From Dudresnaya verticillata (Eukaryota): a stretch of DNA of 64,000 bases. A model generated the notes under the pieces. The model was not told where the DNA came from. It worked only from the letters and a program-made list of their open reading frames with translations, and searched no databases. The stretch is taken from assembly GCA_977862235.1 (NCBI GenBank), contig OZ374559.1, positions 1,550,001-1,614,000 of the forward strand. Reading direction: 5' to 3'. The translations under genes were made by a program, and so were the position numbers. Below are positions 9,576 to 61,759 of the stretch, piece after piece. The first letter of the stretch is position 1; the number at the start of each line of letters is the position of its first letter.

Positions 9576-9578
9576 CAG

Positions 9579-20507: not shown

Positions 20508-20785
20508 GGCGCCTGAGTACACTTACTCGCCCGTTATCGGCTTGATAGCTGCCCGTGGGAGTATACCGTTCCGGACGGACAGCTGAACGAGCTGTAGCTT
20601 TCGGAAGTGCCGATGAGGGCGGGGGACAGTTTTCCCCAGGCTTTCACCGGACAATCCGTACTTCTCTTGTTTTTCCGTCTTGAACTTGACGCTTCTTGGG
20701 GAATCGTCCCGTGGTTGAAGTGGTTGAAACCAGAAAATTCGAAAAGATTGTAGCAGCAATGGAAGGGAACCGACCTAGGAAACGA

Positions 20786-20803
20786 TTCTAGGTCGGGAGA
20801 CCA
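20786..20803 (-). promoter_or_regulatory. Primer-binding site of element B (probably tRNA-Tyr)
   Basis: Minus strand TGGTCTCCCGACCTAGAA, 17/18 identical to the element A PBS. Confidence 0.8.
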
Positions 20804-20804
20804 C

Positions 20805-21616
20805 TGTAGCAGTATGGCACCGGCCAGAAACAGCAAAGAACAAGAAAAGACAGCTGTCCGATATCACACGCTAATTGGTGGTAGCTCGAAGGAGGTTTGG
20901 TAGAGGCTTGGAAAGAGGCGGGCCCTGATGACCCGAAAGGGGGGGTGCGGAAGCACGGTAAAGACTCGGCGCGACCGACTGAAGGAAGATATAGAGGTTG
21001 CGACCCGGTATTTCGTAGAGTACTTGTCGTACGATGTCCGGGCCTGTACTGGGCGACTCCTGCAGGCGCGGAGCGTCCGAGCGACCAAAAGGTGGAAACT
21101 TCCCGAACAACTCCGCTGAGTGTTTTTTTCTGAGGGCGCCGGCTATTCCGGCGCCCATAAGTAGGGCTTGACAGCCGAAAAGTCTATCAGCCCGAAAGGG
21201 GGTCTAAGTTAGTCTATGATTATAGATACAAGGTTAGTACAGTCAGTACAAATCAAAAGTGGGAATGCATTCCAGTTAGGGGACTTGGTGGCGGATACGC
21301 CGGTGCGCAAGCCGAGGTCCCGGCTGCACTGTCGATACCCTGAGCGCAGAGGTGCTCCTCGTCCGTGAGTAGGAGCGCAGAGGCGCGTCATAAATCAACC
21401 AATACGAGGCGTCCAACTGGCGTCGTTACAATGCCACGCGTATGTCACGTGTACAGCTGTAAGTCCACGTGTACACACGTGTACACACGTATATTCCACG
21501 TGTCATCCACGTGTACAGCGGTGAAAGGACAGCTGTCCTGATTAAGGGACAGTCTGTTCCGCCAAAAGGAAGGCACTCCTGTAAGCCCTCCTTCTGACAG
21601 CGTCCGTAGTACCACA
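20805..21616 (-). repeat. 5' LTR of element B
   Basis: Matches 8765-9575 and is followed by the TSD ATTGC. Confidence 0.95.
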
Positions 21617-29174: not shown

Positions 29175-32100
29175 ATATACCTTTTGGGTGGCTTTTAAAG
29201 CTTTTTAATGATGGTCGGGTCCGCTATGGCTTTTCACACCGCCAACGAGGCCCCCGGTTCAGTCTCTACATGCTTCGCCCTAATAGCAAAGCAGAGTCAT
29301 GGTGTGGAAGCCCACTAGCACTTTTCTAAACGAGTTGGGACGTACCTCTGACAATCGAAAAGATTCGCAGTGATTTAAGCCATACGGGAAAAAAGCGCAC
29401 AGCGACAATACTGTACATCGGATAATACATAGCTCTCAGTATCAGAACAGCGCAATAGGATCCTTGCGAGCATGTGTCAAGAAGAGATCAGTATGGAGTC
29501 TTTGGATGCAACTGAGGTTGTCGGAACCCCATCGCTCTGAATGACTACCATCAAACGCTACTGTAACAGTACCGGTCTAATGTCTCGATTATTGAATCCA
29601 TCGTCATTAGTTTTGAATGCAAAAGTCAAAGGCTCGTTTCTACGTGGTAACCCCCTCCAACTCTTAAGCGAAGATGCATTCGTGTTCAATTTGGAAACTT
29701 CCTTCACTGCAATCATGGTCAAAATGCCATCCACATCGCTCTGTATCGTACAGCTGGAATCTGCTATATGGAATATGTTTCTTACCTGCTGGTACATCCT
29801 CTTATCGCAAGCAGAACGCCGCTCTCTCACTCATTTCGTGACGACTTTGCTCTATCCCATCACTATCTCCTCGTCACCTAGGCATCAAACTCTGCCCTCG
29901 AGACCTTTTGGGAGTATCTTTCGAGAAAGCTACTCTCAAAACTCTAAGCGAGTGTGGGCTTACTCTGATCCAGCTGTGAATCTCATACTGCAATCGCAGG
30001 GGGTCAGGCTGCAAGTATTGCTCTTGCTCATCACAAAACGGTATAAAGCATATCGCTGTTCTCGTGATAGGGTATTGGGAAAGTCGTAGACGACGAGAGC
30101 TGCAGTCCAACAAAGGGACGCTTTCAGTTGGGAAGCTGCTTCTTGTTGAAGCCCTATCCCCTTGTTCAAGACTCACTCAGTTGCCCACAAAACTCTCTCA
30201 ATTCCTGTTTTTCATCAAGGCATCCACCATGCAGCGTCTGTCCTCTGCTTTCATATCCAAATGTCTGTTCTTTCTGTTGTTTGCCTTCGCCTTGTTTCCC
30301 ATGGCAGAGGCAGTTTCTCGCTGCCATGCTGGCCCCAAAGGAGGCGGGGGCACCTCAGTTATCCACGGCCATGCTCTCACTGATCCATCCCCAGATGATC
30401 CAGCAACTCGTCATGTCGTCGACTTCTCTGTCCATTTGAAGCACGACACTGTGATTTGGGATGAACTCAGCAAGGACAACATCAAAATTGAATCTTGCGA
30501 CTTCCCTGGTACTGTTGAAGAGGGAACGGTCCGCCTCTCAGGCGACAAGCTAGATCAGACTGATTTCAAGAAAGGAGTTGTCTTTGCAATTGAGCAGGCT
30601 GACTTGGAGATTGGTTGCGCAGAGGAACTATCCCCCGGTCCTGATGCGGACGAAGCGGATAGCTACTGGTTTTTCGAAATCAAGGAATCCCAGAACATTG
30701 GCGGGGACACTGTGTTGCTTACGATGGCTAATATTGCAGGTGAGGAGGCGGTACCAGAAGTCGACATCAAAGTCCATGAAGAGAAAGCTTCAGAGGCGGC
30801 AAAGGAGGAACTCAAATCCTTTGAGTTTGATGACTGTCTTGATAGCTCTAGACTTGCAGCTCGCAATGCTCGATTGTATCCGGATTTCAGAAATGCAACT
30901 GGTTCACTCCAATTGCCCACATCTGATAAGCTGACGTTGTTTAAGAGGAGAGAAAAGATTGCAGACAATGTACATTTGGAAGTTTCTGCAAGTTTGAATG
31001 CCAAGATCAGCGGTTTTAAACTGACACGCTTATCGGCCATACGCTTCGAGTGGGATCAAAGGCTCACAGCCTCACTGTCTGCTTCTCTTGACGCCCAGGC
31101 TTCGCTGGACGGAAGCAAGAGAACTGGAGAGCTTGCGAGATGGTTCATTCCGGGCCTGAGCTTCGGCTTGAGCATCCCATTCGTCGGAAGCATTAAGGCG
31201 GGCGCGTTCGTGGGAGTGAACTGGGTAACGCAGGTACGCGGGAACGTACATATGCGTCTCGCGTTCAATGCCAAATATGAACGGTATGAACACGTGCGTG
31301 CATCGTTGCTACCTCCGAGGTATGACGCCGAAAACCGACTTGCTCGTCCTGCGGCGTCCGCCACAAGTGCAGTGACGGTGACATCGGCAACATCGTACTT
31401 CGTGAGCGGTTTCTATGGTCTGCGGCCGGTCATCGGGGCGGGGATCACCAGGAAAAAGAAGAAGTATGCTATCAAGTGGAGAGGATTTCGCACCAGAATA
31501 AAGAGGTGGACAGAGACAACGAGCGTGAATGGAAACTTGGGGGTCGACGTTGGGCTGGAGTTGTATGCGAAAATACAGTCCGAACCATTTCCGGCATACA
31601 CAGGGTCGGGAGGGAAGATAGGCATTTGCAGAAACTGCCACGCATTCCAGGGACATGTTTCCTTCAAAGGAAAATCACTCGGTGTGCAGGCCGTGAAAGA
31701 TGGAAAAGTAACGAGCGAAAGGGTCTTCGTCAACACTCTATTCAATATTCGTCTTGGCACAGTTTGCGCGCTGAAGATGGTTTGTCCCCTGATACCGTCT
31801 CATGGACCACGCAAGGGATCGGTTGCATCAGGATCTCGGCAAACCGTACGCCACCAAACTTTGACACCACAAGCCAATTCCTATGAGTCTACCCGCTATC
31901 TTTCTTAGACATAGTACGCTTGCAGGCCGTATCGACATCCAGGCCAGCATTTTAATGGTCTAGTCTTACGCAGTCAACGACAACAAAAAGGATTACTCCA
32001 CTGATGCTGGTTTCTCTGAGCACGCGATAGATTTGTTGGAGCTGCCCTTGCACTTCTGCCCCAGGCGGGACCTTTAATCTAGTTTTAGACCAACCACCGG

Positions 32101-32819
32101 GTAGGTCAATCTATGAGGTGGGCGAGTACTCCGTCACTATTCACAACGACTGCGTCGCATGATATTGTGTGGTGGAATTAGGCACAGACATAAAACTTGA
32201 TGATAGAGAGGTCTCCACGGTCTCCAGAGACCTTCATGCATAGGAATCCTACTAGGGAGGCCTATCTAAAATTCATGTGAAAGGAGACTCTCCAAGAGTG
32301 TACGGCGGGTAGGGGCTCCCCTGTTGGGAACCACAACATTAGCGAGAGGAGAAGGCCCGGTTGGGAGCGTCGGTGGCTCTTCATGGCGAGATCGGGGCCC
32401 TGGGCGAGCTCCGGGACTAGACGGGATGATCGTAGCTATGTTCTACAGTTAGTTAATCACGATCTGTGTTAAAGCTGGTACATGTAGTCTTGATGTACTC
32501 TGTTGTGTTGCAATGGGATGTGGCGCAACACAAACACCACGAGAGCCGTGAGCAAAATGTGGGGCAGGCAACAGTCGCGTGATTTTGTTGAAGCTCAGGG
32601 CTAGTGTCTGATCAATCTTGCTGTGGTGTTTACTGGGAAGTTCTCATTCTGGCATCGAGATCTGGCTCAGGTGCGAGTTCTGAGCCAGATCCAGCTAAAT
32701 TAGAATGCTCTAATGACGTCACACGCCTCAACGTCTTGATGCTTTGATCCTTTTCAAGACAAATGGCAAGTTCTTGGAGGAAAAGTTAGTACAGTAAGTG
32801 AATCCATTTATGGTGCTAC
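29175..32819. repeat. Right arm of the large inverted repeat
   Basis: Reverse complement of 23885-27531. The spacer 27532-29174 is unique. Confidence 0.97.
30229..31908 (+). CDS. Secreted protein of unknown function, copy 2 (identical to copy 1)
   Basis: Identical translation in the ORF track (30064..31908 vs 24798..26642). Confidence 0.85.
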   Translation: MQRLSSAFISKCLFFLLFAFALFPMAEAVSRCHAGPKGGGGTSVIHGHALTDPSPDDPATRHVVDFSVHLKHDTVIWDELSKDNIKIESCDFPGTVEEGTVRLSGDKLDQTDFKKGVVFAIEQADLEIGCAEELSPGPDADEADSYWFFEIKESQNIGGDTVLLTMANIAGEEAVPEVDIKVHEEKASEAAKEELKSFEFDDCLDSSRLAARNARLYPDFRNATGSLQLPTSDKLTLFKRREKIADNVHLEVSASLNAKISGFKLTRLSAIRFEWDQRLTASLSASLDAQASLDGSKRTGELARWFIPGLSFGLSIPFVGSIKAGAFVGVNWVTQVRGNVHMRLAFNAKYERYEHVRASLLPPRYDAENRLARPAASATSAVTVTSATSYFVSGFYGLRPVIGAGITRKKKKYAIKWRGFRTRIKRWTETTSVNGNLGVDVGLELYAKIQSEPFPAYTGSGGKIGICRNCHAFQGHVSFKGKSLGVQAVKDGKVTSERVFVNTLFNIRLGTVCALKMVCPLIPSHGPRKGSVASGSRQTVRHQTLTPQANSYESTRYLS

Positions 32820-38624: not shown

Positions 38625-40511
38625 TTATACCCGCCGCTCGGACCCATCAAACAGCGGCACTGTCATAGAGAACCGTTCGCGGTAGGTCAGTTTCTGTTCC
38701 TCCAGAATCCCGAGCGCCACTTGTTCGCCGAGCAGAATGCTTTCGTAATAGTCTGAAAAGTAATGCACACCCGCCCAGTTCCGCCCTATTGCAATGTTCG
38801 AGCAAAGCTTGTTCAGCTCCCCGCCTACCGTGAGATTAGCTTTCACTGGCTCCAGCGCACTCCCATCCTCATTCACAACGAAGCAGTGCGGCAGTTCAAA
38901 GTCTGTATCGAAGAACGCCTTGAGGATCGTTACGCACGCCCCACCTACGGTCGCGTGGCCCGCCCCGTAGCTGGGATGCATCGGGGAGCCTTCAGGATAC
39001 GCCATGGGCAAGAGCGCAGAGTTGCTGCGGTCCTCTACCCGCAAATCTTTCACGCGCCTTTCGCCATCATCGTACTGGTTTTGCAGTTCGTTCTCTTCCA
39101 TCACCCGGTACAGCAAGTCCTTGTCCAACGCGTCGAACAGCGCCTTCCCAGCTTGCGCAATCACATTGCTGTGCGATTTCCCGATGTAGCGGTCGAGCAC
39201 GCCGCCGACCGCCTCGGGCCTTGGGCGTCGGTGAACGTTGAATTTCTGAAACCGCACCGCCTTCAATGCGCGCGTGGTGACCTCTGCGAGCAGTGTGAGA
39301 ACGTGCGGGGGCCCGAAAAGAGCGAAGCCGGACTGCTTGTCGATTGCGTCTTCGTCTGTGAACGGGAGCCCCTGGTCGAACGGGGCGTGCATATCAAGTA
39401 GGACGAGGCAAGCGTTGAGGTAAGCCTGGTACGCAGCGTCATGATGCACATACGTGGCCAGGTCGCGCGGGGTGGTGATGAAGCGGAAGGGGACACGGCG
39501 CGAGTAGAGCTCCTTTCCGCGGACATCGGCCCCATTCTGAACGTCAAGGAAGGCGGCCCAGGTGGTCATGTAGTCCTTGCCGGGCTTTGCGACGCGGACG
39601 CGCTGGTCCATTCGCATACCGCCGTACTGGATGTAGCCGTCCTCTGGGACGCCATGATGGCCCAGACCGGTGGTACCGATGATGAGAAACTGCGAGAGGT
39701 ACGGCCCCTCATCGTCGCCGGGGGTGATGCCGCGAAACAGCGTCTGCAGGCTGAGGTGGAAGCGGCGGCGCGCCTGTTGCGCGCTGGAAAGGTTGCGGTG
39801 ATATCGGCTCTGACGGGGATGGTGATGATGGCGGCGGCGGCGGCGATGATGATATTCACGCAACCAGGGCATGTCGTTCAAGCCGGATATTGCGTCGTCG
39901 ATAACGGCGATGATGTCCGGGATGGCATCCGGACGGTAGCGGTGAACCCTGCTAACGTGGGCCTTGCGCAGGGTGCGGCGACCGAGTTGAGAGAACCACG
40001 ACAACGGAACGTCCCTGAACAAGGCCATCCAGAAGAGCTCTGCCATCTCGAAGTGGAGCTCGTCGCTCTCCAAGCGCGGTGCGGGGGGCATGGTGAGTGC
40101 GCGAGCGTCGGGACCCTGGAGATCGTAGGCGGCGCCGGCAGCCATGGACTCCCAGCCGCGCACCGAGACGCCGCGGGCGATGCGGGAGACGAAACCGGGG
40201 CTGCCGGGGCCGAGCGGGAGGGCTGCGATGAGGGGCGGGGAGCCATTGCGGATGGCGCGGACGAAGGCGTCGTAGTCTGCGCCGCGGGCCAGCAGGCCGG
40301 TGCGCGGGCAGTGGCGCAGGCCCTTGGTGAAGACGGCGACGTACGTGCGATGGCCGGACGGCGAGCGGAAGAGGCGCTCGTCGGCGTTGCGCAGGTGCGT
40401 CGGGTGCGGACGGCTCAGGGCTAGCTCAGCCGCGCGCAGACGCAGCTCGTACGCGGACGAGGCGCGACGGGTGGGGGCGTGCGAGGACCGGGAGCGTCCG
40501 GTGGACGACAT
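38625..40511 (-). CDS. Vanadium-dependent haloperoxidase (bromoperoxidase type), paralogue 1, 628 aa
   Basis: Vanadate motifs KAVRFQKFNVHRRPRPE, SPMHPSYGAGHA and GRNWAGVHYFSD, plus FTKGL, GPYLSQF and RDLATYVH. Intronless. Confidence 0.97.
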   Translation of the reverse strand: MSSTGRSRSSHAPTRRASSAYELRLRAAELALSRPHPTHLRNADERLFRSPSGHRTYVAVFTKGLRHCPRTGLLARGADYDAFVRAIRNGSPPLIAALPLGPGSPGFVSRIARGVSVRGWESMAAGAAYDLQGPDARALTMPPAPRLESDELHFEMAELFWMALFRDVPLSWFSQLGRRTLRKAHVSRVHRYRPDAIPDIIAVIDDAISGLNDMPWLREYHHRRRRRHHHHPRQSRYHRNLSSAQQARRRFHLSLQTLFRGITPGDDEGPYLSQFLIIGTTGLGHHGVPEDGYIQYGGMRMDQRVRVAKPGKDYMTTWAAFLDVQNGADVRGKELYSRRVPFRFITTPRDLATYVHHDAAYQAYLNACLVLLDMHAPFDQGLPFTDEDAIDKQSGFALFGPPHVLTLLAEVTTRALKAVRFQKFNVHRRPRPEAVGGVLDRYIGKSHSNVIAQAGKALFDALDKDLLYRVMEENELQNQYDDGERRVKDLRVEDRSNSALLPMAYPEGSPMHPSYGAGHATVGGACVTILKAFFDTDFELPHCFVVNEDGSALEPVKANLTVGGELNKLCSNIAIGRNWAGVHYFSDYYESILLGEQVALGILEEQKLTYRERFSMTVPLFDGSERRV

Positions 40512-41201
40512 GGTGGGTGGGGGTGGGACGGGGTGGGAGAGAGGGGGCGGGAGGGTGTGGCGGGGGTCGACGGGGGGGGGGGGGGGGGGGTGGGCGGGCG
40601 CGGCGCGGTGGGGCGGGTGTGCGGCTTTGTTTTGGGTTTTTGACTTTTAATATTTGTTAGGCGAAAGGAACAGTGAGACCGCGGCGCGGCAGCGCGACTC
40701 GCGCGAGGGAAGGCGTTTCCGAGCGACACGCGCTCAAGCCGCTGTCGATAATGCGAACGCAGCCCTCCACGCTTGCCCGGCGCGGAGCGACGCAGAGGAA
40801 CAAGAACGACAACAGCAGCAACAAGGAACGGCCGACGCAGACATGCCGCCAGGTCGTGTAACAGCGTCAACTCCGCTCGCAGCTCCGGTCCTTGCGTGCC
40901 GCGACGTCGCCCAAACCAACTGCCCGCAGCGCCGTCTCAACCCAACTGCCCACCGCGCCAACTTCGCGCTCCACCCGACGCCGAGCACCACACCCGCCGC
41001 CGCCCGCGCCGCCGCCCGCTCGAGCTCTCGCATCACCAGCGAGCGCAGCTGCTTGCGCAAGTGCGAGGCCGGCCACGCGGCGTCCGCCCGTTAAACAGCC
41101 CGTCTCGACGTCGCGGAACACACCCCGTCGCGAGATATCTACCCGAAAGGTACAGCTTTACTTAGTGCCATGATGCCACGGCTTAACAAACAACGTTGCG
41201 G

Positions 41202-42926
41202 TCACGCGCGCTTGTTCGAGATGACGTGCTTCGTCCCGTCGAACTTGGCCACCGTCATCGAGAACTCCTCCCCAAACGTCCCCATCTGCTCCTCGAGCAT
41301 CCCGATCGCAAACGCCTCCCCGAGCAGGATGCTCTCGTAGTAGTCCGAAAAGTAGTGCACCCCGGCCCAGTCCCTGCCCACGCTGATGTTCGAGCACAGC
41401 TTGTTCAGCTCGCCCTCCACCGTTAGCTTCCCGTCCACGGCCACCTCCCGCAGGCTACTCCCGTCCTCGGTCGCCTCGAACGCCACGTCAAGCTCTGTGT
41501 CCGTGTCAAAGAACGCCTTGAGCACCGTCACGCACGCCCCGCCCACCGTCGAGTGCCCGGCACCGTAACTGGGGTGCATCGGCGACCCCTCCGGAAACGC
41601 CATGGGCAGCAGCGTTGACCCGTGCTTGTTCTGTACCAGCGCGAGCACGTCTGCCAGCGCCTCGCTCAGCGATTGTCCAACCTCCCCAATGCCCCCGTCC
41701 TGCACCCCGCACTTGAACCGGTCGATGATCCCGCCCACGCCCTCCGGACGCACGCGCCGGTGCAAGTTGTACTTGTTGTACACTACGCACTTGAGAGCCC
41801 GCTGTGCAACCTCCGTCACCAGCGATAGCAACCGCGGTCCGCCAAACGTGGCAAAGCCCTGCTGTTTATCCACCGCGTCCGGCTCTTGGTACGGGATGCC
41901 CTTGTCAAACTTGACTCCCGAACCGAGCAGGATGAGACCCGCATTGAGGTACGACTGGAACAGCGCGTCCACATGCACGTACGTGCAAAGATCGCGCGGC
42001 GTTGCGATGAAGCGGTACTGCGCGCCCGGCTCAAAGTCGTCTTTTCCATTGAGCGCGGCGCCGTTCTGCACATCGAGATAGGCGTCCCATGTGGTCATGA
42101 AGTCGACGTCCTTCTTCACGACGCGCACACGCTGGTCGACGCGCACGGCGCCATAGCGGATATAGCCGTCCTGCGGGCGCTCAGCATCCCCGAAGCCGGA
42201 TGTTCCCCGCAGCAGAAACTGTGAGATGTACGGGCCGACATCGTCGCCGCGCGTGGTACCACGAAAGACGTTGTGCAAGAAGTAGGGCCCGCGCTTGCGG
42301 CGGGCCTCCTCGGGAGTGAGGCCTTCTGGACAGTCGGTGACAAACGGGAGGTTGTTGAGGCTCGCAACGGCGCTGTCGAGCAGGGCAGCATAGTCGGGGT
42401 GGGCGGCGGCGCAAGTGGCGGTTCCGGCTAGCTGGGAAAACAAGGTCAGCGGGGCATCGCGCAGCAGGGCCATCCAGTAGAGCTCGGCCATCTCGAGGTT
42501 TAGCTCGTCGGAGACGAGGCGCGGAGCGGGCGGCATGTCGATGGCCTGCATGTCCGGGCCCATGAGGTCGAAGGCGGAGCCGGCGCCCATGGCCTCCCAG
42601 CCGCGCACAGGGCATCCTTGGGCGATAGGGGAGGCGAAGGCGGTGCCGTCGGGCGGGCCGAGCGGGATGGCGCGGATGTTCTCCGGGGTCGGGTGTGTGA
42701 CGGCGAGGCGGAAGGCGTCGTAGTCGGCCGGGTTGGACACCAGCCCCGTGCGCGCGTTGTGCGGCAGCCCCTTGGTGAACGAGCCCAGCAGCGACGAGGC
42801 GTAGGTGAGCTCGTCCGGCGACGCGGCGTACTGCGGGTAGGCGCGGTCGCGCGACAGCGCGGCGGCGCGCACGCGCACGTCGTACGCGGCGGCGCGGCGG
42901 TCGTTGTCGGGCGTGGGTTTCGTCAT
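41202..42926 (-). CDS. Vanadium-dependent haloperoxidase, paralogue 2, 574 aa
   Basis: KCVVYNKYNLHRRVRPE, SPMHPSYGAGHS, GRDWAGVHYFSD, FTKGLPH and GPYISQF. Colinear with paralogue 1. Confidence 0.97.
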   Translation of the reverse strand: MTKPTPDNDRRAAAYDVRVRAAALSRDRAYPQYAASPDELTYASSLLGSFTKGLPHNARTGLVSNPADYDAFRLAVTHPTPENIRAIPLGPPDGTAFASPIAQGCPVRGWEAMGAGSAFDLMGPDMQAIDMPPAPRLVSDELNLEMAELYWMALLRDAPLTLFSQLAGTATCAAAHPDYAALLDSAVASLNNLPFVTDCPEGLTPEEARRKRGPYFLHNVFRGTTRGDDVGPYISQFLLRGTSGFGDAERPQDGYIRYGAVRVDQRVRVVKKDVDFMTTWDAYLDVQNGAALNGKDDFEPGAQYRFIATPRDLCTYVHVDALFQSYLNAGLILLGSGVKFDKGIPYQEPDAVDKQQGFATFGGPRLLSLVTEVAQRALKCVVYNKYNLHRRVRPEGVGGIIDRFKCGVQDGGIGEVGQSLSEALADVLALVQNKHGSTLLPMAFPEGSPMHPSYGAGHSTVGGACVTVLKAFFDTDTELDVAFEATEDGSSLREVAVDGKLTVEGELNKLCSNISVGRDWAGVHYFSDYYESILLGEAFAIGMLEEQMGTFGEEFSMTVAKFDGTKHVISNKRA

Positions 42927-44517
42927 GGGTGGTTGCGGGGGGTGGTCGTGGCGGTGGTTGCGGAAGTGGTTGTTGAGATGGAAGGGGACTGTTTATGTAC
43001 GATGAAGGGCGAAGGGCGGAAATGGGGTTTTGATCACACTGACAAAATCTCGCGACTGAGCATCTCTCGACAGCATTGCTGCTGCTTCTTTGAGACTTAC
43101 TTATCGATTCGCGCAAACTTTCTCGGCGCGACTGACCACTGTTTGGGTATCTTTAACCTCACCTCCGCGAGCCAAACGACAGCGTTGACAACAGGACACG
43201 TCTCCAATATCCCTCTTTAGAAGCTTCCTGATTATGAGCGTACGCGAAAGGCTTGTCCCCCCTTGCGTTAGTCCTGCCACGGAAAGCATGAGCAACGCGA
43301 TGGCGTCGTGCTTTCGATGTGTAACCCCTGGGCGCTCAACACGCGGAAGCGCCCGCAGGCTAATAGCCCCGACGCCCGACCCGCTGTGGCGTCGTGAGGT
43401 GAGCTCTGTACAGAGTACGGACGCCTGCTGAGTACTCAGCCGACTCGCCGTGCTGATGCTCCGAGTGATGCGCTCTACTGTAGCGTACGCTCACCATGCA
43501 GACCCAGCGCACATGCGCCGGGCTGCCATGCCTTTCTACATGATTGGCCTGCTGCCAGGTCCTACGACTAAGGCGAGGACCTGGGCGACTTTCCGTCCAT
43601 CGCCGGCGATGTCGGGATGGCTGGTGCCTGTGGCGGCACCTGTCCATGGCTGTTCGGAACGGAGCTTGCGTACGCAAGTCACATTTACTGTGGGTTGCAC
43701 AGAGCTGTCCAGCTGTAGTATTAATAAAGGCAACCCGCTGGCGTCGAACGACGGCGAGGGCATGCGACCACTGCATCGGACCCGACCAGCGCGGTATACC
43801 CATCTACTCGCCTTCCTCTTTCCGCCTCTATCCTTCACTTTCTCTTTTCGTCTTCGCGTACGCGAGACTGTTTCGGACACGGACGTGCCCACTTGTCACA
43901 GATGACATCAGCACTCGCCAATTCAAATGGAAATGTATCTCAAGTGTCTACTTGAGTCATGCTGGTAACCAATAGTGTTATGGTGCTGTAATATGCCGCG
44001 GCTGTTTCCGTGCTAGTCTGTCTATGTACGATGGAGAGTTTGTGCAGTTGAGTTGGGAAAACAAGGAAGAAAAACACTCGGAAAAGTGTTTGCAAGTTTA
44101 GTCTACAGGCAGTCCTCAGTCTGTTCACTTTCATTGCTATGGACCTAGTGAAGACGGTAACTTCGAATTCCGTCGTCTGGAATAGAGGAGACCAGATCTT
44201 GAACTCGACCAAATACCTTCAACCTTACAATTCTCCACTTCCTTTTCCATCTTCCATGTCCATCAAGCAGTTTTAGAGTCTCATTGTATCTCATTTTGGA
44301 TATATGCGTAACAAGAGCTGGTCATTGACTCGAGTATATTGGTTTAAGAGGAAATCGCTGAACGCGTAGACGGGTTACTCAAATCGTATCTTCACAAAAC
44401 CATGTTCAGCCCAGTGCTAACCCATTGTGCTCCCTGCGCACTGAAATGATGCTAAGGACAGCAAAATAAAGCAGGGAAGGAACGCACCAAAGTAAGTAAG
44501 AAAGGACAGAAACAATA

Positions 44518-44589
44518 CTCCTCCACGGGAAAACCAACCCCAGCCTCCCGAGTGAGAGTCGGAAATCCTAACCACTCGACCATAGAGGA
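44518..44589 (-). tRNA. tRNA-Glu(CTC)-like sequence with a degenerate T-loop (probable pseudogene)
   Basis: TCCTCTA-TG-GTCG-AGTGGTTA-GGAT-T-TCCGA-CT[CTC]AC-TCGGG-AGGC-TGGGG-TTGGTTT-TCCCG-TGGAGGA-G. 72 nt; acceptor and anticodon stems pair, but the T-loop is TTGGTTT rather than TTCGATT. Confidence 0.8.
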
Positions 44590-46690: not shown

Positions 46691-48534
46691 CATGACAATA
46701 ATGAAGAATGAGTGCAAGGAATGTTCATCTAATGTCAAGAATCCCTTGTACGGTTCACCTTCAGAATTCAGGAAAATGGTCACCAAGCGCCTTGTGGGTT
46801 CTGCTGAGGCTCCAATTGATGGAAGATACAGGAGTAAGCTTGGTCATACCATCTTCATTGAGAACATCAACATTGTGATTGGATCTGAGCGGCATTAGGT
46901 GAAGGCCGATGATAGTGCCATACATTCTATGTGTGGATATTTCCATATATATATGTATAGCACTCCGTTCTCAATGATCCGATGAATCCAATTCTCTCAC
47001 TCTCAGCCTCATCCGCTCTATTCTCCGCTACAGTCAATCAATGCAAATTGTTCCAGATTAATCGTAGAACTTCATGTACGCCATTTGGAGGAGATTAGTG
47101 TTCTTTAGTCCCGATCTTCTCGACTTTTATCCGGTCTATACTTTACCGACTCTGTCGGGGCTACTGGTACTTCCTTCTTTCTCGCCACTTTATCGCAATC
47201 AAGATAGCCATGACCGTTAGGTCTAACGTGATATTGCGACTTTATTATTCATCTATCAAGAACAAGAAGGAAGCTCTAGAAGCTTTCCCCCGTCAGAGAT
47301 AACTAGTTTACCATGTTTGTCCAGAAAAGGCGTCAGAGGTGCTTAGATGCCAAAGGTCACGACATGTGCTTCATAAAACCTAGAACAACAGTAGATCGGA
47401 ACAGTAGAGCTAGCAGTACGGCGGTACACGCAAGCCTGTCCAGTGCCGCAGTTGATAAGGCGCTCGTAGTAGAAGTCCATTCCAGTGAAGGATCCCTTCC
47501 ACAGAGCAGCGTGGTTAAACTGTCCATCCCCGGCCACAGTCTTGTAGCTGCACGAGCCCCGGTAGCCCGCAAGGAGCTCCATGGAGCGAGTCCTGATAGT
47601 CGTGAGGTAGGAAACTGGAGTTCTACCCTCGCATAGGATGAAGGCACCTCTGTAGGGACTACCTGGAACCTTCTCAGAAGTGTCCATTTTGGCCATCTTG
47701 GAGTCATGGTCCAGAACTGTGTCCGTCGCTTTGCTTGCCTTCACATCTCCCTTGAGCTCGACACCGGCCTTCAGAGCGCCATCTTCCTTGATTTCAACGT
47801 TTTCGCAGTGAGCCACACCGGCAAAGAACAGAACTGCTGCGGAGAGGACGAGAACGGCTTTGTAGGACTTCATAGTTGGAGCAAGTATCGGTGCCTGTTT
47901 GGCTGAGATCAATTTCTTTTACTCTTCGGACGGTTGAGTTTGGGTTTTGAGAAACGTAGTGAAGCGAAGCCAATGGGGCATTTATATATCTCTTGAAGTT
48001 TCTTTTGTCTGCTCGATTGATTGTAAAATAGTGTACGACTGGGAAACTTCCCCATTCGCATTCGAGTAAGCAGTGGACAAACTGGCGTCTTAAGGACTCA
48101 TACATTTCAGGTGCATAAGCATGTGCTCCACTTTGTTTGTTACCAGAACTTACCAACTCTGCAATAGTAATATTGCTATTTCTTGGTTCGTATAGCTGGG
48201 ATTCCATTTCGTATGAGTGGATGGCAGCTGGCCTGTATCGTCATTTAGAAAGCTGATCTATTGTTACTGACAACCGCTACAGAGCGAATATAATCGTATG
48301 CATTCAGCGTTGTTGCTAAACCGTAGATTGGATTTTCGCAACTGATAGGATTCAGTGTTGTTGAACCCTATTCATTGTTAAGGTTATGATGTCTTTCGTA
48401 ACTGAGAGGAATATTATCAATTGGTTTCGCTTGTTCATTTCAGCTCCCCACTAGGTAAAACTGTTTGACAACTTAATGGGAACCTACCTCGAGGATATGC
48501 CCCTACTTACCACGTCACCAGCCTCTATCTGGCA
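46691..48534. repeat. Segmental duplication, copy A (direct repeat of 59939-61759)
   Basis: Colinear from CATGACAATAATGAAGAA to CAGCCTCTATCTGGCA and includes the small secreted-protein gene. Confidence 0.93.
47343..47873 (-). CDS. Small secreted Cys-rich pre-pro-protein, copy A (176 aa)
   Basis: Signal peptide MKSYKAVLVLSAAVLFFAGVAHC, charged pro-region, 6-Cys C-terminal domain. TATA-like ATATATAAA upstream at ~47982-47990. Confidence 0.88.
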   Translation of the reverse strand: MKSYKAVLVLSAAVLFFAGVAHCENVEIKEDGALKAGVELKGDVKASKATDTVLDHDSKMAKMDTSEKVPGSPYRGAFILCEGRTPVSYLTTIRTRSMELLAGYRGSCSYKTVAGDGQFNHAALWKGSFTGMDFYYERLINCGTGQACVYRRTASSTVPIYCCSRFYEAHVVTFGI

Positions 48535-52766: not shown

Positions 52767-53774
52767 AGCCCCGTAAGGAGGCTTATCTAAAACTCATCTG
52801 AAAGGCGACGGTCGAAGAGTAAACGAGAGAGGTGAGGTGGGTGAGAAGAGATAGTTTCTCAGATATCGGCGAAGTACCCTTCATAGTAGCTAGGAAATTC
52901 GCCACGCGCTGAGCGCCTCGATCGAACCCAGAACCAATGGCACCATAGATGTCCATCACCATAGGATGGAGATCTATCCGGTTGGTAGAACATAAGCGAC
53001 GATAATGACGGGCTTTCGCTTGCTCGCGGCGGTGAATAGCTTGATGTTGAGAGCGAGGCGTGTTGGGCAGTGTAGTTGGATGGTGTGGGGTCACCACGGA
53101 GACGTCAAACGCTTGCGGGAGGGGGGCAAACGCAGGGTCATCAACATAGAAATCCATACGAAGATGGTCACGTCGGTCTTCTTCGAAATGGTCTTCAGTA
53201 CGTTGTAATTGACGGGCATAGCGACGCCTTTCTGAAGCAGTGCGTGTAGAAGACGCCACAACTCGGGAATCCCCAGTCTCCTCTAGATAAGAAAAGTTAC
53301 GTTCAAGCTGAACAGTAACGCCATGGTTCCGAGCAGTATTACGAAAGAAAGCCCCAATTTGATTTCGGAGGGTAGCATGGCGGCGAATGCTGCCAGTTCC
53401 CGATCGACAGATTGTGGCATGGTGTCCAAAGATATCAAGGAGGGGAACTTCAGCGGATGTGCCATGGAGACAAGCAGGACAAGGGCGATCACCACGGAAG
53501 ATCGCCACACGCAGTCTGAGTTTGAGCATGGTGAGCCATATGTCGGGTTGCACGCGGGTAGAAGAAGATGCATATGGGAGGGCACTGAAAGGGCGGCTAG
53601 AGTTGACAGTAGAGGTAGATTGAATCCGTACTCGGGCACGAGAGCTATGCTGAGCAGTCATCTGGGACATGAGGTCGTGGCGCATTTTCGTTGAACATAG
53701 GGAAGAAGATCTTGGGACAATGTCGGAACGACACCATGGCCTATGGGAGATGCGGCCGATAAGATAGAAGAAAC
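52767..53774 (-). mobile_element. CRE/R2-like non-LTR retrotransposon, 3' part (CCHC finger plus restriction-like endonuclease), left of the copia insertion
   Basis: LRLR..CPAC..D.FGHHATIC, RRHATLRN, RMD, AFDVSVVTP and REQAKARHY match the RLE-clade endonuclease layout. Confidence 0.88.
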
Positions 53775-54179
53775 AATAAAGGAATGGTGTTTGGATCAAT
53801 AGCAAGTTGGCAGTAGCAGCGGTATCAGAGGAACAGTGGATTTACAGAACAGAGTAGAACAGATTGTGTTGAGTAGATGAAATGTTGTCCTTGTATCGAG
53901 AGGGTAGAAAAAGAGAGAACGAGGCGGTACTTATAGGCAGGCGAAGACTGCCTCTAAAACTTAAAACGACCGTTGACTAAAGTTAGAAGAAAGTGCTCAC
54001 TGAGAACCATTGTGAATACAACTACATAAAACATAAACATGGTTCATCAGCATGAATACAACCGTAGAATAGTATCTGCAGTATTAATACGACTGTAGAA
54101 TCATTTCATCAGTATGCATACGACTGTAGAATGATTGCATCAGTATGCATACGACCGTAGGACAATTAATGTTTTCATT
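53775..54179 (-). repeat. 3' LTR of the copia element
   Basis: AATAAAGG...GTTTTCATT. Adjoins the minus-strand PPT AAGAAAGCGGGAGGAG (54180-54195). U3 holds ~30-bp tandem repeats. Confidence 0.95.
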
Positions 54180-54203
54180 CTCCTCCCGCTTTCTTAGCTG
54201 AGT

Positions 54204-57200
54204 CTAACCAGTGAACTGGGTTGAGTTGCGAAAGAGATTCTCTGTGAAATTCATGCTGAGCTCTCCAGAAAACATTGTCAGCTGTAATGGTTGAACAAGC
54301 GGGCTGTTAGCCTTAGTGAGTGGATCTGCAAGGTTGGTCTTGTCAGGAATCGAGATGATGCGATTCACTTTGTGCGTCTCAAACTCATATCGAATGACGC
54401 TGACATCTGCCCGAATGGAGCGATCAATGGAGTTGCGGCAGGTTGATAAAGTCTCATATAAATCCTTGGAGTCAAGAGCGACCATCAGGTCAACTTCAAC
54501 GTCGAGAAGCGTCTTGTAGGCACTAACCAGAACTTTGCCTTCATCGATTGCTTCACCAGACGCTAGTATTTCTGCAGCTCCAATAGATTTGACTGGTCTC
54601 TTTGACTTGTGTGAACACCATGAAAGTGTATGGAATATAGAACCCATTTCGAAGTCACCGATAAGTAGACCTGATATAAAACCAAGCTGGCCATAGTCAG
54701 AACTGCGACTAGCGTCTGCAAACATCAGAACGGATAGAGGGTACTCTTTCTTATCTGCTGGTCGCTTGTAAATGATGGTACTTCCAAGTTTTTGCAGCAG
54801 TCTCAAAGAGTTGATTTGAGAGATCATATCGTGTACAGTGGTTTGAGGTACCTTCTGCTGTAAATGACTGGCATAGAAGGCACAGAATGGCGACGCGGCA
54901 ATTTCAAGCCATCCAATCGAGCTGTTGACTGATCGGAAGGAACTAGTTTCAACAGCATTTAGAACTTCATCTCCTTGCTTTCTTCTTTGTCGATCAATGG
55001 GGTAGCAGTTTAAGTTGTCCAACTTGTCATCAGCTTGTATCCTTATAGAGCATTCATCATCTTGAGCAATGTGGAGGCCAAAGAAAAGGAACGATCCCGG
55101 ACCGTAAACAATTGTCCCGAGCTCATAGCGCTCCTGTATCTTTCCAATAGTTGACCGAACAGTTGACTGGTCACCAGCAAAGAGTACATCGTCCACAATT
55201 TTGACAGCAACGAGTTGCAATGAACCAATTGCGTCCTTCTTGTAAAACAACTGTGGAACATAAACGAGTTAGCGGAGACCGATCGATGTTAAGAAATTGT
55301 CACTTTGCTCCTGCCACTTAGCATTGGCGTTCACAAGACCATATGCTGCAGTCAACAACAACCAATAGTGCTTCTTGTCGTCGCTTTCTCGTGGCGGAAC
55401 GACATAGACGTCTCGCTTTGCTTCTCCTGTTTGCAGAAACGCGCTCTTAAAATCGATCTTGGCCAAGAACCACTTGAACTGAGCAGCGAGGGACAGCAAA
55501 ATGCGAATACCAGTTGGCGGACAGGTTGAAGAGTCTGTTTTCAACTGAAAGCGTTCTTTGTCCTTGTTACCATGTGGCGCTATGCGTGCTTTCATTTTCA
55601 TCGAGCCATCATCATTATTCTTAACTTTGTATATCACATGGCTTGTGATGACATTTGCATGCTTTGGGATATCAGAAGCATGGACCATCTTGACTGTTTT
55701 CTTAAAGGCCTCTTCTTCTTTTTTGTAAGCATTTAACAATGGAAACGTTGGTAGCCCTTGAGCCTGGTAGCGCATAAAATCTTTGTGACCGAAGGCAAGA
55801 GTATACGACCCAAGAACCTCTTGCAGAGAACTTGTGAGCGTTTGATCTGATATTTGTACGTTGTTGGTTGCTATTGCTTCATCTGAGCTATAGCGCCAGG
55901 TCTCATCCGATAACTTGAGACATTCTTTGTCACCATCATTGTAATCAATGTTGTACTGGTTGTCATCTTCGTTAATTGATGCCACTTTTCCAGTGTAGAA
56001 CATATCGTCGAGGGGCCAATATACATCAATGACGTCACCAACGTCGGGATGTGAGCTGAGAATATCTCCGTCATCGTTTTCGTATCCCACCTCCTCTATA
56101 GTGGTAGTCTCAAGCTCTTCATTTGATGCCACATCTTCTTTAGAACAGAGCTCATCAATGCTGTCATCCAGACTTTTGGAGAGAGCATCAATTGCTTCTT
56201 GGATGGAACTGCCTAGTGTATCCACAGGTAGGGCAGGACGGACATCTTCAACAGCTGCTTGGACTTGGCGTCCACGTTTTCCAGGAACTGAAATGGTTCC
56301 AGACGTTTTATCGAACGATAAAATCACCTTCGGAGATGACCACTTGCCGCGCTTGGCATTTTGTTCTTTGATATAAACTTGTACGGTATCTCCAACATTG
56401 AATGGTATATCAACAGTTGACTTGGAGTGAAGGATGCGGGTTAATTTTCGCTTAGCCATGAGGTCATCGTGGGCCTTGGAAATTTCTTCAGGAACTTGTG
56501 CAGGAAATTCTCCGGATGTTATAGGTCTCGTATAGCCTTTCGCCAACTCATGAGCAGAACATACGTCATTTCCGTACAGATCATTTGATATTCGTAGTGC
56601 CTGCTGCACTAGGAGTCTTTGGTGCTCAGCAGAGTCATTTGTACATCCTTCTTTCAGGCGTACGTAGACATCTCGAATAACTCTGTGCTTAGATTCAATG
56701 ACATTTTTTTTGTGGCGACGCGGAGGTATAGGGCGAGTTTCAATGTCTTGACTTTTCAGATAATGTATGAACTCGGTGTTGTTGAACGCTTGGTCAAATA
56801 GAACACATTTTGGGGTCCAGAACGGTGTTATCCATAGAGATTCGAAACAATTAATAGCTTCCGTCATAGTCATAGTGCTTACAACATCGCCGGTCGAATA
56901 TCTTGAAGCAGAGTCCATGAGATGAAACACACGGTTCGTATCAAGGTGGAAATGATCAATGCATACAACGTCGTTAAAGTTCCTGCTCATGGAGCTTAGT
57001 GAGACCTTCCGGGTGTCTTTTGGTTTAGAAGTAGTTAAACAACTTGAGCATCTGTCCAGGACACGGGAAAGATATTTCTGTACTTCAGCATTCCAAATGT
57101 TGTTTCGCTGGAGCAATATCTTGATATCAGAATAAGAAGAGTGTCCACAGACGTGTTGATGGACCTTATCAACAATCTTCTTGATGTCTCCAAAGGGACG

Positions 57201-58645
57201 AGTGTCTTGGTTTTGGTTGATCTGAGCAGTGGCACAATAGAACTTGTTCGTGACACGAGATGACAGGTTGGAACTGTTCGGTAGGAATACGTTATAGGGT
57301 ATGTAACTGTGGAATCCATTGTCTTGGAGACCGATTTAATCTTCAGATGTTGGCCTAACGAGCCTGTTATCGCCAACATGAACAATGTCACAATGCTTCG
57401 TGACATTACAGCCGATAATCCATTGCGAGGAGCCTTCAATGATTAGGTGTCGGATAGACACTAGGTTGTTCTTATCAGTGCGAGCCATTAAAGTGACCGA
57501 TTCGAGAATTCTCCTTGCCTCACTGGAGTGTTGCCCTGCACCGTATTGCCAAAAGGCACAAGACTGAAGCTGTTGGGGTATAGGGTCCAGATTGCCTTCC
57601 CAGTCCGGTAGGATAATGGGCTGCAGTATCATAAACTCGGACATGCCTAGACCACTTTACGGACCACAGTCATCAAGTAACGGGCCTGTAAATTCTTCGC
57701 TTATCTCATTGTGGGAATCGAGTAGATGCCCCATGTTGAAGGTCACGGTTTTCTTCGGTGGTTGGGAGTTCGGTTTTGCATCAGAAGGAGAAGGATTATC
57801 AGTAGACTTGACTCCAGGCTTGAGTTTACCGTCATCTGTGTGATCAGAGTGCCAGTGTCCGAATTTGTGACACTTACGACATTTGCTGCGGCTTTTAAGA
57901 TCTGCAAGCTGATCAGGTGTAAGCCTTCTGCGATTCCTTGGGAAGTTCGGTCTTTTGAACTGATTGTTCACAGCATTTGCACACAGGGGACGAATATTCT
58001 CAGTCATGACTTGGTCACACTGCCTCAGAACAGAAGCTACTTTCTCGTATGAAACTGAATCGAGAAAATCATCAGTTGTAGCTGTAGGAGCTATATTTGT
58101 GTTGTTCGAAGCTGCTGCAAGAACAGAAACTCTTTGACCGTTATCCACGGCAGAATTTGCAAGTAGCATAAAAGCAGTAAGGGCTTCTGGGAGCTTTGTT
58201 GTACTGGAGCCAGCATTGAATCTGGAAACTTGAGCGTCGAATCGTGATTCGAAGTTTTTGTATGTCTCCGTGGTTCCGCGCTTGGTACTAAATAGGGCAA
58301 TAAAGTTTTGGTAAACTCACTGACAACCGAGAGTGCATCTCGTTTGTATACAGCATTCACCACAGCTTCTGAGCCAGTACCAGATTGGATCTCAGTATCG
58401 GGAATGGATTTGCATAGATCTTTTGCTCTTCCATAAAGCTGGGACTGAAGCATTATACCACGAAGTTCCGTGGGTATCTTGTTTGAGTTAGAGTCTGGGA
58501 GCCTGTTATGGAAAGCATTCCATAAAGAAACAGAGAGTGAGTACTCTTCTTGGTTGCCTTTGCCATCTGTCCAAGGAACATTTTTGATATCCCAAGAAAA
58601 CCTTGGGCGAGTCGGCAGATACGCCGATGATGAGCCTGGGCCCAT
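54204..58645 (-). pseudogene. Copia gag-pol polyprotein with a Tudor-like domain between IN and RT; several stops and frameshifts
   Basis: Pieces 58091..58645, 57657..58169, 57336..57644, 55269..57116 and 54204..55250. Confidence 0.92.
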
Positions 58646-58648
58646 AAC
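58636..58648 (-). promoter_or_regulatory. Copia PBS of the half-tRNA-iMet type
   Basis: Minus strand GTTATGGGCCCAG abuts the LTR. It is complementary to the anticodon arm of initiator tRNA-Met (CTGGGCCCATAAC), as in Drosophila copia. Confidence 0.85.
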
Positions 58649-59053
58649 AATAAAGGAATGGTGTTTGGATCAATAGCAAGTTGGCAGTAGCAGCGGTATC
58701 AGAGGAACAGTGGATTTACAGAACAGAGTAGAACAGATTGTGTTGAGTAGATGAAATGTTGTCCTTGTATCGAGAGGGTAGAACAAGAGAGAACTAGGCG
58801 GTACTTATAGGCAGGCGAAGACTGCCTCTAAAACTTAAAACGACCGTTGACTAAAGTTAGAAGAAAGTGCTCACTGAGAACCATTGTGAATACAACTACA
58901 TAAAACATAAACATGGTTCATCAGCATGAATACAACCGTAGAATAGTATCTGCAGTATTAATACGACTGTAGAATCATTTCATCAGTATGCATACGACTG
59001 TAGAATGATTGCATCAGTATGCATACGACCGTAGGACAATTAATGTTTTCATT
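58649..59053 (-). repeat. 5' LTR of the copia element
   Basis: 405 bp; two substitutions seen by eye relative to the 3' LTR. Confidence 0.95.
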
Positions 59054-59938
59054 GAAACACTGCATTTGTCACGATATTCACGGAGTAGTTGCTGTTCGCG
59101 AATGTTATGAAGAGACGGGGCGAGGAAATGGTGCAAAGTAGGAGAATCAAAAGGTACCAGGAGTCGGATCCAGGCGAGAGAGGACAGGACGGAGGTGATA
59201 TAGCTGCAGTGGGCAATGTGACGAGCATTGGTAAGACCTAGTCCACCGTGCCGCATGGGGAGCGAAACCAGATCCCAGGATTCATCCGACAGTGGAAAGT
59301 GTGTGTGTTCAAACACTCCACGCAGGCCAGAGTCATACGTTATTGAAATAGCTTGGGTTAGTTGCGGGGGAGTGCATCGCAGTAGGTATGAAAGCTTGGA
59401 AGTTCCGGCACAGTAGCGTAATGAATGAAAAACGAGTTCCGGATCATTAAGCTGCTTCAGTTGGGCCCAGAAATATTGGATGGGCTCATGCTTAGCCCCA
59501 CTGCGATGTGCAGATTGAAACCAATTTTGGGGCCTTGGGTCTTTAGAAACTGGATAACATCGAAAGCAATAGAACGGGGAACCGCAACATGAATGTCATC
59601 AGCATATGCAGCAAGACGTTTGATGGAGGCGAACGTAGAGAGCATGCTGATGAGCAGGGGATGAATCGCGAGAGCAAAAAGTAACATGCTCAACGGATCA
59701 CCCTGCTGTGTACCTGTCCGACTGAACAACTGAAACTGACCAAATAGAAGAACGGGGTCAGTCGAGAAAAGGAAATGCACAAACTTTGCAATGCCAGGAG
59801 CTCTTTCGATAACTTCACTGAGAATAAGAGAACGCTCAACACAGTTAAAAGCGTTGGTGGCATCAAGCTTAAGAAGGACATAGTCTTGCTCAGTATTAGA
59901 CTCCACGAAAGAACGTATGGCGTGAAAAATAGATTCGG
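59054..59938 (-). mobile_element. CRE/R2-like non-LTR retrotransposon, 5'-truncated RT part, right of the copia insertion
   Basis: AESIFHAIR, KLDATNAFN, GTQQGDPLS, YADD and SLPMRHGGLGL. Confidence 0.9.
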
Positions 59939-61759
59939 CATGACAATAATGAAGAAAGAGTGCAAGGAATGTTCTTCCAATGTCAAGAATCCCTTGCACG
60001 GTTCAGCTTCAGAATTCAGGAAAATGGTCACCAAGCCTTCTGGGTTCTGCTGAGGCTCCGATTGATGGAAGATATACGAGTACGCTTGGTCATACCATCT
60101 TCATTGAGAACATCAACATTGTGGTTGGATCTGAGCGGCAGTAGGTGAAGGCCGATGATAGTGCCATGCATTCTATGTGTGGATACTGATACTTCCATAT
60201 ATATATGTATGTATAGCACTCCGTTCTCACAGCACGGATGAATTCAACTCTCTCACTCCCTGCCTCATCTGCGCTATCCTCCGCTACAGTCAATCAATGC
60301 AAATTGCTCCAGATTAATCGTAGAATTTCATGTACTGTACGTCATTTGGAGGAGACCAGCATTCTTGAGACCCGATCTTCTCAACTCTTACCCGATCTAT
60401 GCTGTCTCAACTCTGACGGGGCTACTGGACCTTCCTTCTCTCTAGCAACTTTATCGCGATCAAGATATCCATGACCGTTAGGTCTAACGTGATATCGCGA
60501 CTTTATTATTCATCTATCAAGAACAAGAAGGAAGCTCTAGAAGCTTTCCCCGTCAGAGATAACTAGTTTACCATGTTTGTCCAGAAAAGGCGTCAGAGGT
60601 GCTTAGATGCCAAAGGTCACGACATGTGCTTCATAAAACCTAGAACAACAGTAGATCGGAACAGTAGAGCTAGCAGTACGGCGGTACACGCAAGCCTGTC
60701 CAGTGCCGCAGTTGATAAGGCGCTCGTAGTAGAAGTCCATTCCAGTGAAGGATCCCTTCCACAGAGCAGCGTGGTTAAACTGTCCATCCCCGGCCACAGT
60801 CTTGTAGCTGCACGAGCCCCGGTAGCCCGCAAGGAGCTCCATGGAGCGAGTCCTGATAGTCGTGAGGTAGGAAACTGGAGTTCTACCCTCGCATAGGATG
60901 AAGGCACCTCTGTAGGGACTACCTGGAACCTTCTCAGATGTTTCGAGTTTGGCCATCTTGGAGTCATGGTCCAGAACTGTGTCCGTGGCCTTGCTTGCCT
61001 TCACATCTCCCTTGAGCTCGACACCGGCCTCCAGAGCGTCATCTTCCTTGATCTCAACGTTTTCGCAGTGAGCCACACTGGCAAAGAACAGAACTGCTAC
61101 GGAGAGGGCGAGAACGGCTTTGTAGGACCTCATAGTTGGAGCAAGTATCGGTGTCTGTACGATTTCTTTTGCTCTTCGGACGATTGGGTTTAGGTTTTGA
61201 GAAAATGTAGTGAAGTGAAGCCATGGCGCAATTATATACCTCTTGAACATTCTTTTATTCGACACGATTGATTGTAAAATAGCATACGACTGGGAAACTC
61301 CCATTAACGCAAGCAGTGGAAAGGCTAGCCTCATGTGGACTCATACGTTTCAGGTTCACAAGCATGTCCTCCACCTTGGTGTTTACAAGAATTTACCAAC
61401 TCTGCAATAGTAATATTGCTATGTCTTAGTTCGTACAGCTGAGATTCAAATTCGTATGAGTGAATTGAAGCTGACCTGCATCGCCACTTAGAAAGCCGGT
61501 CGAATTGTACTACCAAACACAGAGCGGATGAAATCGTGCAGCGTTCAGCGGTGCTGAACCTTATGCTAGCATTTTTTGTACCCGGTAGGATTCAGTGTTG
61601 GTAAGCCTTATGATATCTTTCATAACGGAGAGGAATATTTGCAATGAGTTTCGCTAGTTCAGTTCGGCTCGTCACTCGGTAAAGCTGTTTGATGACTCGA
61701 ATGGGAACCTGCCTCGGGGATATGCCCTTGCTTGCGACGTTTCCAGCCTCTATCTGGCA
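59939..61759. repeat. Segmental duplication, copy C (direct repeat of 46691-48534)
   Basis: Colinear with copy A. The left edge coincides with the 5' truncation point of the non-LTR element. Confidence 0.93.
60603..61133 (-). CDS. Small secreted Cys-rich pre-pro-protein, copy C (176 aa)
   Basis: Signal peptide MRSYKAVLALSVAVLFFASVAHC; C-terminal domain identical to copies A and B. Confidence 0.88.
   Translation of the reverse strand: MRSYKAVLALSVAVLFFASVAHCENVEIKEDDALEAGVELKGDVKASKATDTVLDHDSKMAKLETSEKVPGSPYRGAFILCEGRTPVSYLTTIRTRSMELLAGYRGSCSYKTVAGDGQFNHAALWKGSFTGMDFYYERLINCGTGQACVYRRTASSTVPIYCCSRFYEAHVVTFGI

Follow-up and report, generated by a model that had tools for sequence, protein, structure and literature searches.

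The copia retrotransposon in this window, by which we mean the whole stretch of 64,000 nucleotides analyzed here, is confirmed to carry a real single Tudor barrel within its pol frame, at 55890..56048 on the minus strand between integrase and reverse transcriptase (RT). Residues with which the plant protein RDM15 binds histone H3 are present in this domain, and it is therefore likely to tether the integration machinery to marked histones. Our full account is more tentative and in its entirety possible rather than probable: an old, undescribed copia lineage of red algae would have acquired its H3K4me1/R2 reader from a small multi-Tudor protein of the host and would aim integration at monomethyl-K4 chromatin, a short peptide tether would have replaced the reader in one subclade, and the lineage would integrate ends with two additional bases outside TG...CA. 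In the Tudor copia, the integrase of a retrotransposon has independently gained a histone reader whose ligand can be predicted with unusual precision, down to all seven RDM15 contact positions, and a nested Tudor-less subclade serves as the family's built-in control. Chromatin marks of red algae are little charted. If the Tudor steers insertion, the insertion sites of the family would form a natural H3K4me1 map in these organisms, and the element would be a reader-guided one aimed at a mark that is not tied to heterochromatin in plants.

A Tudor barrel in a copia polyprotein

The element spans 5279 bp on the minus strand (53775..59053), and is both the sole copy and the sole family-profile Tudor match in the 64-kb window. 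It is assigned to Ty1/copia because of its order of gag, protease, integrase, RT and RNase H; these domains lie between two LTRs, the RT is of the RVT_2 type (PF07727, E 6e-15, 55.9 bits against a cut-off of 31.6), and a primer-binding site, a polypurine tract and a 5-bp target-site duplication are present. The copy is dead but young, with three stops and one frameshift in its coding region and two mismatches between the LTRs, each of 405 bp (5′ LTR at 58649..59053, 3′ LTR at 53775..54179, both minus strand). A 31-bp imperfect tandem repeat of about three copies occupies the U3 of each LTR (58922-59041 and 54048-54167). The duplication reads GAAAC on the plus strand, at 53770..53774 beside the 3′ LTR and at 59054..59058 beside the 5′ LTR; a 6-bp reading suits the window copy alone and does not suit the other junctions, and reading-frame continuity of the interrupted host element across the insertion does not single out the 5-bp duplication. 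The primer-binding site (GTTATGGGCCCAG, 58636..58648, minus strand) contains the ATG that starts gag, is found identically after the 5′ LTR of the related locus L011 and with one change in L021, and is presumably an internal tRNA-iMet site like that of Drosophila copia. The polypurine tract lies at 54180..54195 (minus strand). Contigs of near-identical copies occur in public runs, 10 of the 12 listed runs holding part of the element, some a small share; they include marine metagenomes, and no RNA run is among those listed.

All coding regions lie on the minus strand. Gag (57700..58645) has a CCHH-type zinc knuckle at 57840-57881 and the frameshift near 58316; the gag of the intact relative P0002, with which the window element shares 56% by tblastn, gives a weak zf-CCHC match. 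The aspartic protease region (57336..57699), for which the family motif is DDGAPYS, is degenerate and interrupted in the window copy. An open reading frame of 688 amino acids (55269-57335) covers integrase from its zinc finger onwards together with the first half of RT. Within it, the zinc-binding and catalytic core of integrase (56412..57161) is recognized by family-conserved motifs and by rve matches in relatives, with the HHCC motif at 57039-57161 and the catalytic residues D, D and E in CIDHF, FDQAF and VIESKH. The integrase C-terminal SH3-like barrel (56226..56411, residues 1-62 of the structural model) is separate from the Tudor; a conserved helix (model residues 65-97) and an acidic disordered linker (pLDDT below 50 at 98-117) make up 56049..56225 between the two. 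Behind the Tudor, a short variable linker (55851..55889) ends in a loosely conserved motif of a small residue, N or H, E and a hydrophobic residue, which Tudor-bearing and Tudor-less members share and which we infer to be a candidate cleavage site between integrase and RT. RT and RNase H follow at 54204..55850, with a stop at 55269-55271, the RT motifs KARIAP (55575-55592) and IVDD (55188-55199) and the RNase H motifs FADAS, AEILA, DSKDL and ADPLTK.

The sequence-only reading had picked out 53 amino acids between the integrase C-terminal region and RT as a Tudor/Agenet-type segment of the PDS5/MSH6 kind, set off by acidic linkers. These residues are the exact, in-frame minus-strand translation of 55890-56048, and the upstream linker has a median of 0.2 net negative charges per residue in 55 members. 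In Pfam the segment matches PF21743 (PTM/DIR17-like Tudor) at 28 bits against a cut-off of 27.2 (E 1.8e-6), and three more Tudor families besides, with LBR_tudor at 23.4 bits (cut-off 22); these Tudor families stand alone, with no Chromo match, and identity as a chromodomain was rejected. The best of seven sequence matches in the PDB is 7DE9, the Arabidopsis RDM15 Tudor with H3K4me1 (E 1.8e-7, gapless), and identity to the RDM15 and MSH6 Tudors is 34-36%. An AlphaFold2 model of 208 residues, built on a 42-sequence alignment, places the integrase SH3-like barrel, a long helix, the disordered acidic linker and a separate five-strand barrel in that order; pLDDT of the Tudor barrel is about 95, and the pTM of 0.37 for the whole model fits independent domains. 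The barrel that had been predicted was thus found, and 7DE9 is also its top structural match, being the only one of 1398 Foldseek matches with E below 0.001 (rmsd 0.6 Å over 52), with a VIA-align Z of 9.5 (rmsd 1.1, 56 aligned). The integrase C-terminal barrel matches PFV integrase (Z 7.4) and the MVV integrase CTD (Z 6.7) in VIA-align, generic Tudor barrels scoring up to Z 8.5 against it, above the retroviral integrases; its SH3_11 match in the relative P0032 is weak. The ESM Atlas gave leads only, namely unnamed clusters at 0.90-0.91 for the 53-mer with Tudor families lower, and a best score of 0.75, nothing useful, for the linker-Tudor stretch. Throughout the family the Tudor begins a median of 71 residues behind the integrase C-terminal barrel (n=53).

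Distribution, loss and origin of the domain

Relatives were sought with residues 425-1400 of P0002, a region that includes the Tudor and so carries a small possible bias towards carriers, and 7991 candidates were scored. The 76 matches comprise 67 close ones (the query and 66 at 41-59%), among them P0053 from the red alga Gracilariopsis chorda, and nine distant ones (24-28%). P0053 is the sole close relative bearing a species name, and a host among the red algae is accordingly likely for the window element. After three close matches ending before or within the Tudor site were left out, 64 relatives span it; the Tudor is present in 54 and absent in 10, and none of the nine distant copia matches has one. 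Seventeen of 21 loci fetched by integrase and RT patterns have a Tudor match, and the other four end before the site. Median pairwise identity among 55 carriers is 45% for the Tudor, 48% for the integrase core and 52% for RT, against 11% and 21% for the upstream and downstream linkers. The domain is thus retained in related copias, as the sequence-only reading had proposed to check, and is conserved like the integrase core. The accompanying proposal to compare dN/dS was only partly informative: among 14 Tudors, synonymous sites are close to saturation in 73 of the 91 pairs, where pN is 0.24-0.51, which speaks for constraint between families, while the 18 close pairs of decayed copies (dN/dS 0.34-1.04) are uninformative. 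The Tudor is under purifying selection in the sister elements. In two of the distant polyproteins, P0076 and P0077, the interval from integrase to RT, where the family has its Tudor, contains C2H2 zinc fingers.

A tree of RT-RNase H (67 rows, quick search, distant outgroup root) left out 10 of 77 sequences: the broken window copy, five with a short RT and four lacking RT. The 10 Tudor-less elements (P0025, P0032, P0036, P0037, P0042, P0048, P0054, P0057, P0058 and P0060) form one clade with an SH-aLRT of 100, nested among carriers (support of 97 with 22 carriers), which is most simply read as a single loss in descent from an ancestor with the Tudor. The Tudor is therefore a lineage trait, already there in the common ancestor of the elements sampled and lost once. 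In the interval where the Tudor would lie, nine of the 10 have the motif hydrophobic-T-H/Y-x-P, usually followed by S-T-F/Y-DP, which occurs anywhere in the protein in just two of 55 carriers. Their linkers are of low complexity, often with an M-x-T/L-R-S motif. Ty5 uses a peptide tether, and by analogy our guess is that the short motif could be an alternative tether of this kind.

The ends of the lineage are also unusual. The integrated window element reads AATG...TATT with the duplication directly outside, and the usual, though not universal, copia termini TG...CA are absent. The ends of other insertions in public contigs coincide with these, give or take one or more bases that match by chance; the 3′ ends of related loci are CATT in four of five and CACT in the fifth, the left ends are TGTGAA in two of two, with a canonical-looking TGAA two bases in, and a purine is the first of the five bases following the 3′ end in all five related loci and in the window (loci and positions L006:5417, L013:2971, L014:4161, L018:7550, L020:5380, L011:2578 and L021:2897). 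From these ends, the lineage seems to insert termini with two bases outside TG...CA, possibly reflecting integration without 3′ processing.

The plant proteins that the domain resembles are unlikely donors in red algae. In the available text of the respective preprints, no MSH6-Tudor was observed in red algae (bioRxiv 2024.10.15.618488) and the origin of the PDS5 Tudor is placed in the common ancestor of charophytes and land plants, on the streptophyte line (bioRxiv 2025.05.08.652912); because of this absence and this streptophyte gain, MSH6 and PDS5 are best regarded as related to the donor, which would have been another protein. A donor search of 1.84 billion representatives returned 1044 matches at E 0.001, the best 150 of which were examined (149 of them new). 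Among these best 150 of 1044, P0087, P0092 and P0100 are small proteins with three to four Tudor units and basic tails, show no polyprotein homology and score 78-82 bits on the family Tudor profile. Identity of their best units to the copia Tudors is 42-44%, on a par with the 43% among the copia Tudors themselves; the other matches in this set reach at most 40%. On these similarities the three proteins are candidates for the donor, or may themselves be derivatives. A tree built from 129 Tudor units (56 columns), with 11 of 124 branches starred, gives neither donor nor direction of transfer.

Predicted histone binding and possible role of the Tudor

In the available text on RDM15 (PMC8184781), W616, Y623 and Y641 form the aromatic cage, D643 and D645 account for monomethyl selection, and E647 and Q654 hold H3R2. 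The gapless alignment places W, Y, Y, D, D, E and E at these positions in the window Tudor, so that the peptide-binding residues agree at six of seven positions, the remaining one being changed from Q to E. On the minus strand, the cage residues are W at 56016-18, Y at 55995-97 and Y at 55941-43, the acidic pair is D at 55935-37 and D at 55929-31, and the R2 pocket is E at 55923-25 and E at 55902-04. A cage of W/F/Y/Y had been expected; the actual arrangement is W/Y/Y with two acidic residues, as in RDM15. Across 55 family Tudors the binding positions hold W in 53, Y/F in 55, Y/F in 55, D in 55, D/E in 47, E in 52 and E/Q in 54; the pattern W-[YF]-[YF]-D-[DE]-E is found in 45, and the cage is intact in 53, its tryptophan being lost in the other two. 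Conservation of the seven positions is 0.91 against 0.52 in the other 46 columns (rank test p 2.5e-4, the sequences being non-independent). The equivalent of D645 is the least conserved of them, with D in 35 of 55, and strict monomethyl selectivity may vary because of this.

We think it probable, though well short of certain, that the Tudor on mature integrase binds H3 R2-K4me1, docks the integration complex and biases insertion sites. The domain, presumably captured from a host multi-Tudor protein, sits behind the C-terminal barrel of integrase on a tether that is flexible and acidic, and it would stay on mature integrase if the protease cuts at the motif downstream of it. It would then bind the H3 tail at monomethyl-K4 and R2, as RDM15 does, several copies per intasome would provide avidity, and docking on nucleosomes bearing H3K4me1 would bias the sites of insertion. 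The position of the Tudor is that of the chromodomain in chromoviruses and CoDi-A, an analogy that counts for a targeting role; a whole subclade prospers without the Tudor, which counts against this explanation.

A smaller but appreciable chance attaches to the Tudor being a methyl-lysine reader that does not select sites. It could act as a nucleosome tether, bind another ligand (H3K4me0/2, another lysine or a non-histone protein) or help to evade silencing by competing with a host reader. Conservation of the domain fits any ligand-binding role, the D645 position varies, and RDM15 itself acts in silencing according to the available text (PMC8184781). The insertion sites that we observe are also repeat-rich. 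The window copia sits inside a decayed non-LTR-type retroelement (RVT_1 at 59457-60002), and of the 29 other open reading frames in the window seven have a Pfam match, in every case to a retroelement domain. Beside related insertions, none of 12 open reading frames has a Pfam match, and the flanks match neither the window nor one another by tblastx. In Chlamydomonas and land plants H3K4me1 marks gene bodies, according to the available text of a study that does not cover red algae (bioRxiv 2025.06.06.658275), and a literature search found no red-algal map of this mark. If H3K4me1 marks host gene bodies, the insertion sites seen, a small sample, do not show that preference; the cause could be that insertions into genes are selected against or that the mark is distributed differently. 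What speaks against a reader without site selection is that family members keep the R2 pocket and acidic pair along with the cage, which points specifically to the H3 R2-K4me1 pincer, and that the domain occupies the position of known targeting readers.

The surroundings of the element contain further features of their own. The interrupted non-LTR-type retroelement lies at 52783-53769 and 59059-61759, with a related copy at 46691-48534; towards its 3′ end are motifs resembling CCHC and a D-x(n)-D endonuclease, of the kind known from CRE/R2-type elements, with no Pfam match. A young gypsy with near-identical LTRs (8764-21423; open reading frame 13449-16085, minus strand) has a pol ending in a chromodomain-like region (PF00385, E 4e-4, below cut-off), making it a second reader-bearing retrotransposon in the window. 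A perfect inverted duplication of 3276 bp (24256-27531 and 29175-32450), with an open reading frame of 642 amino acids per arm and no Pfam match, is either a recent foldback structure or an assembly artefact. Elsewhere, a GC-rich tandem pair of related long open reading frames (38625-43152, minus strand; 71-75% DNA identity in parts) has no Pfam match, and a tRNA-Glu(CTC) gene is found at 44518-44589 (minus strand).

Further from our preferred reading, and improbable, is that the barrel works inside the particle, in contact with RNA, cDNA or Gag or as the N-terminal part of RT, its chromatin role having been lost. The cleavage site between integrase and RT is only a candidate, and Tudor-like barrels such as that of LBR can bind other partners. 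The most conserved surface, however, is the histone-binding one, and the Tudor is strongly acidic (median net charge of -8 in the family) and so poorly suited to nucleic acid. Lastly, it is barely credible that the segment is a captured fragment evolving neutrally or that it arose by duplication of the integrase SH3-like barrel: both barrels open with a VGD-x-V-x-V strand and share a common fold class, but the family Tudor profile gives about 2 bits on the integrase barrel against up to 82 bits on non-transposon Tudor units, and the Tudor is as conserved as integrase with its binding positions kept, on which grounds duplicate and neutral insert were both rejected.

Comparison with known systems

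A reader on an LTR-retrotransposon integrase is a known concept, and a copia with a Tudor was not found in print in our literature search, which covered sources outside subscription papers and Repbase; the word "tudor" is absent from the main text of the Bostrychia genome preprint. The sequence-only reading had thought the architecture undescribed for copia, which holds for what we found. An integrase Tudor in a gypsy element was nevertheless published in 2025: in the available text (PMC12477816), Gypsy-10_Ec32 of Ectocarpus, with a homologue in Tribonema, has a Tudor at the integrase C-terminus and is called the first transposable element with a Tudor. Compared by description, both are LTR retrotransposons with a Tudor at the integrase C-terminus, but Gypsy-10_Ec32 belongs to the gypsy superfamily, its Tudor is terminal, with no ligand named for it in the available text, and its host is a stramenopile.

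Among copias that occur in red algae, GalEa-like elements, including PyRE10G and CoPorcru, share with the window element the ADxxTK end of RNase H, a 5-bp target-site duplication, a single open reading frame and a KAR-type RT motif, and the available text on them mentions no reader domain (PMC5445492, PMC3587641). They differ in their primer-binding site and LTR ends. As far as the available text goes, the GalEa primer-binding site is complementary to the tRNA-Met 3′ end in metazoans or is a hairpin site in fungi, neither of which is that of the window element, and the GalEa LTR borders TGT...CA (PMC5445492) are not matched. The GalEa motifs KARLVA, YVDD, TRPDI and ADxxTK correspond in the family to KARIA, [IV]VDD, ASPF and ADxxTK, TRPDI not being present in the window element.

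The Tudor domains of RDM15/PDS5C (7DE9, available text of PMC8184781) and plant MSH6 share with the copia Tudor the fold, the W/Y/Y cage, the acidic pair and the R2 pocket, but belong to host chromatin proteins. Chromoviruses and Chronos (Ty3/gypsy) resemble the model proposed for the Tudor copia, in which an integrase-fused reader biases target sites, and differ in their RT-RH-IN order, chromodomain and association with heterochromatin; since the window element has neither gypsy order nor chromodomain, membership was rejected. H3K4me1 targeting would give the opposite address to that of chromoviruses, because this is a gene-body mark in green plants. The idea of a copia analogue of chromoviruses, put forward in the sequence-only reading, stands insofar as a reader lies behind a copia integrase; the concept itself was already in print, since CoDi-A and CoDi-I diatom copias have a chromodomain at the integrase C-terminus in the available text (PMC2774666, PMC5348765). 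Membership in CoDi-A/CoDi-I was rejected in view of the missing chromodomain match. Compared by description, CoDi-A and the Tudor copia have in common the copia order, a Royal-family reader at the integrase C-terminus and a proposed role in chromatin targeting; the reader is a chromodomain in the diatom element and a single RDM15-type Tudor here, the two belong to different host groups, and the diatom element is associated with a heterochromatin mark, whereas the mark predicted for the Tudor copia is H3K4me1.
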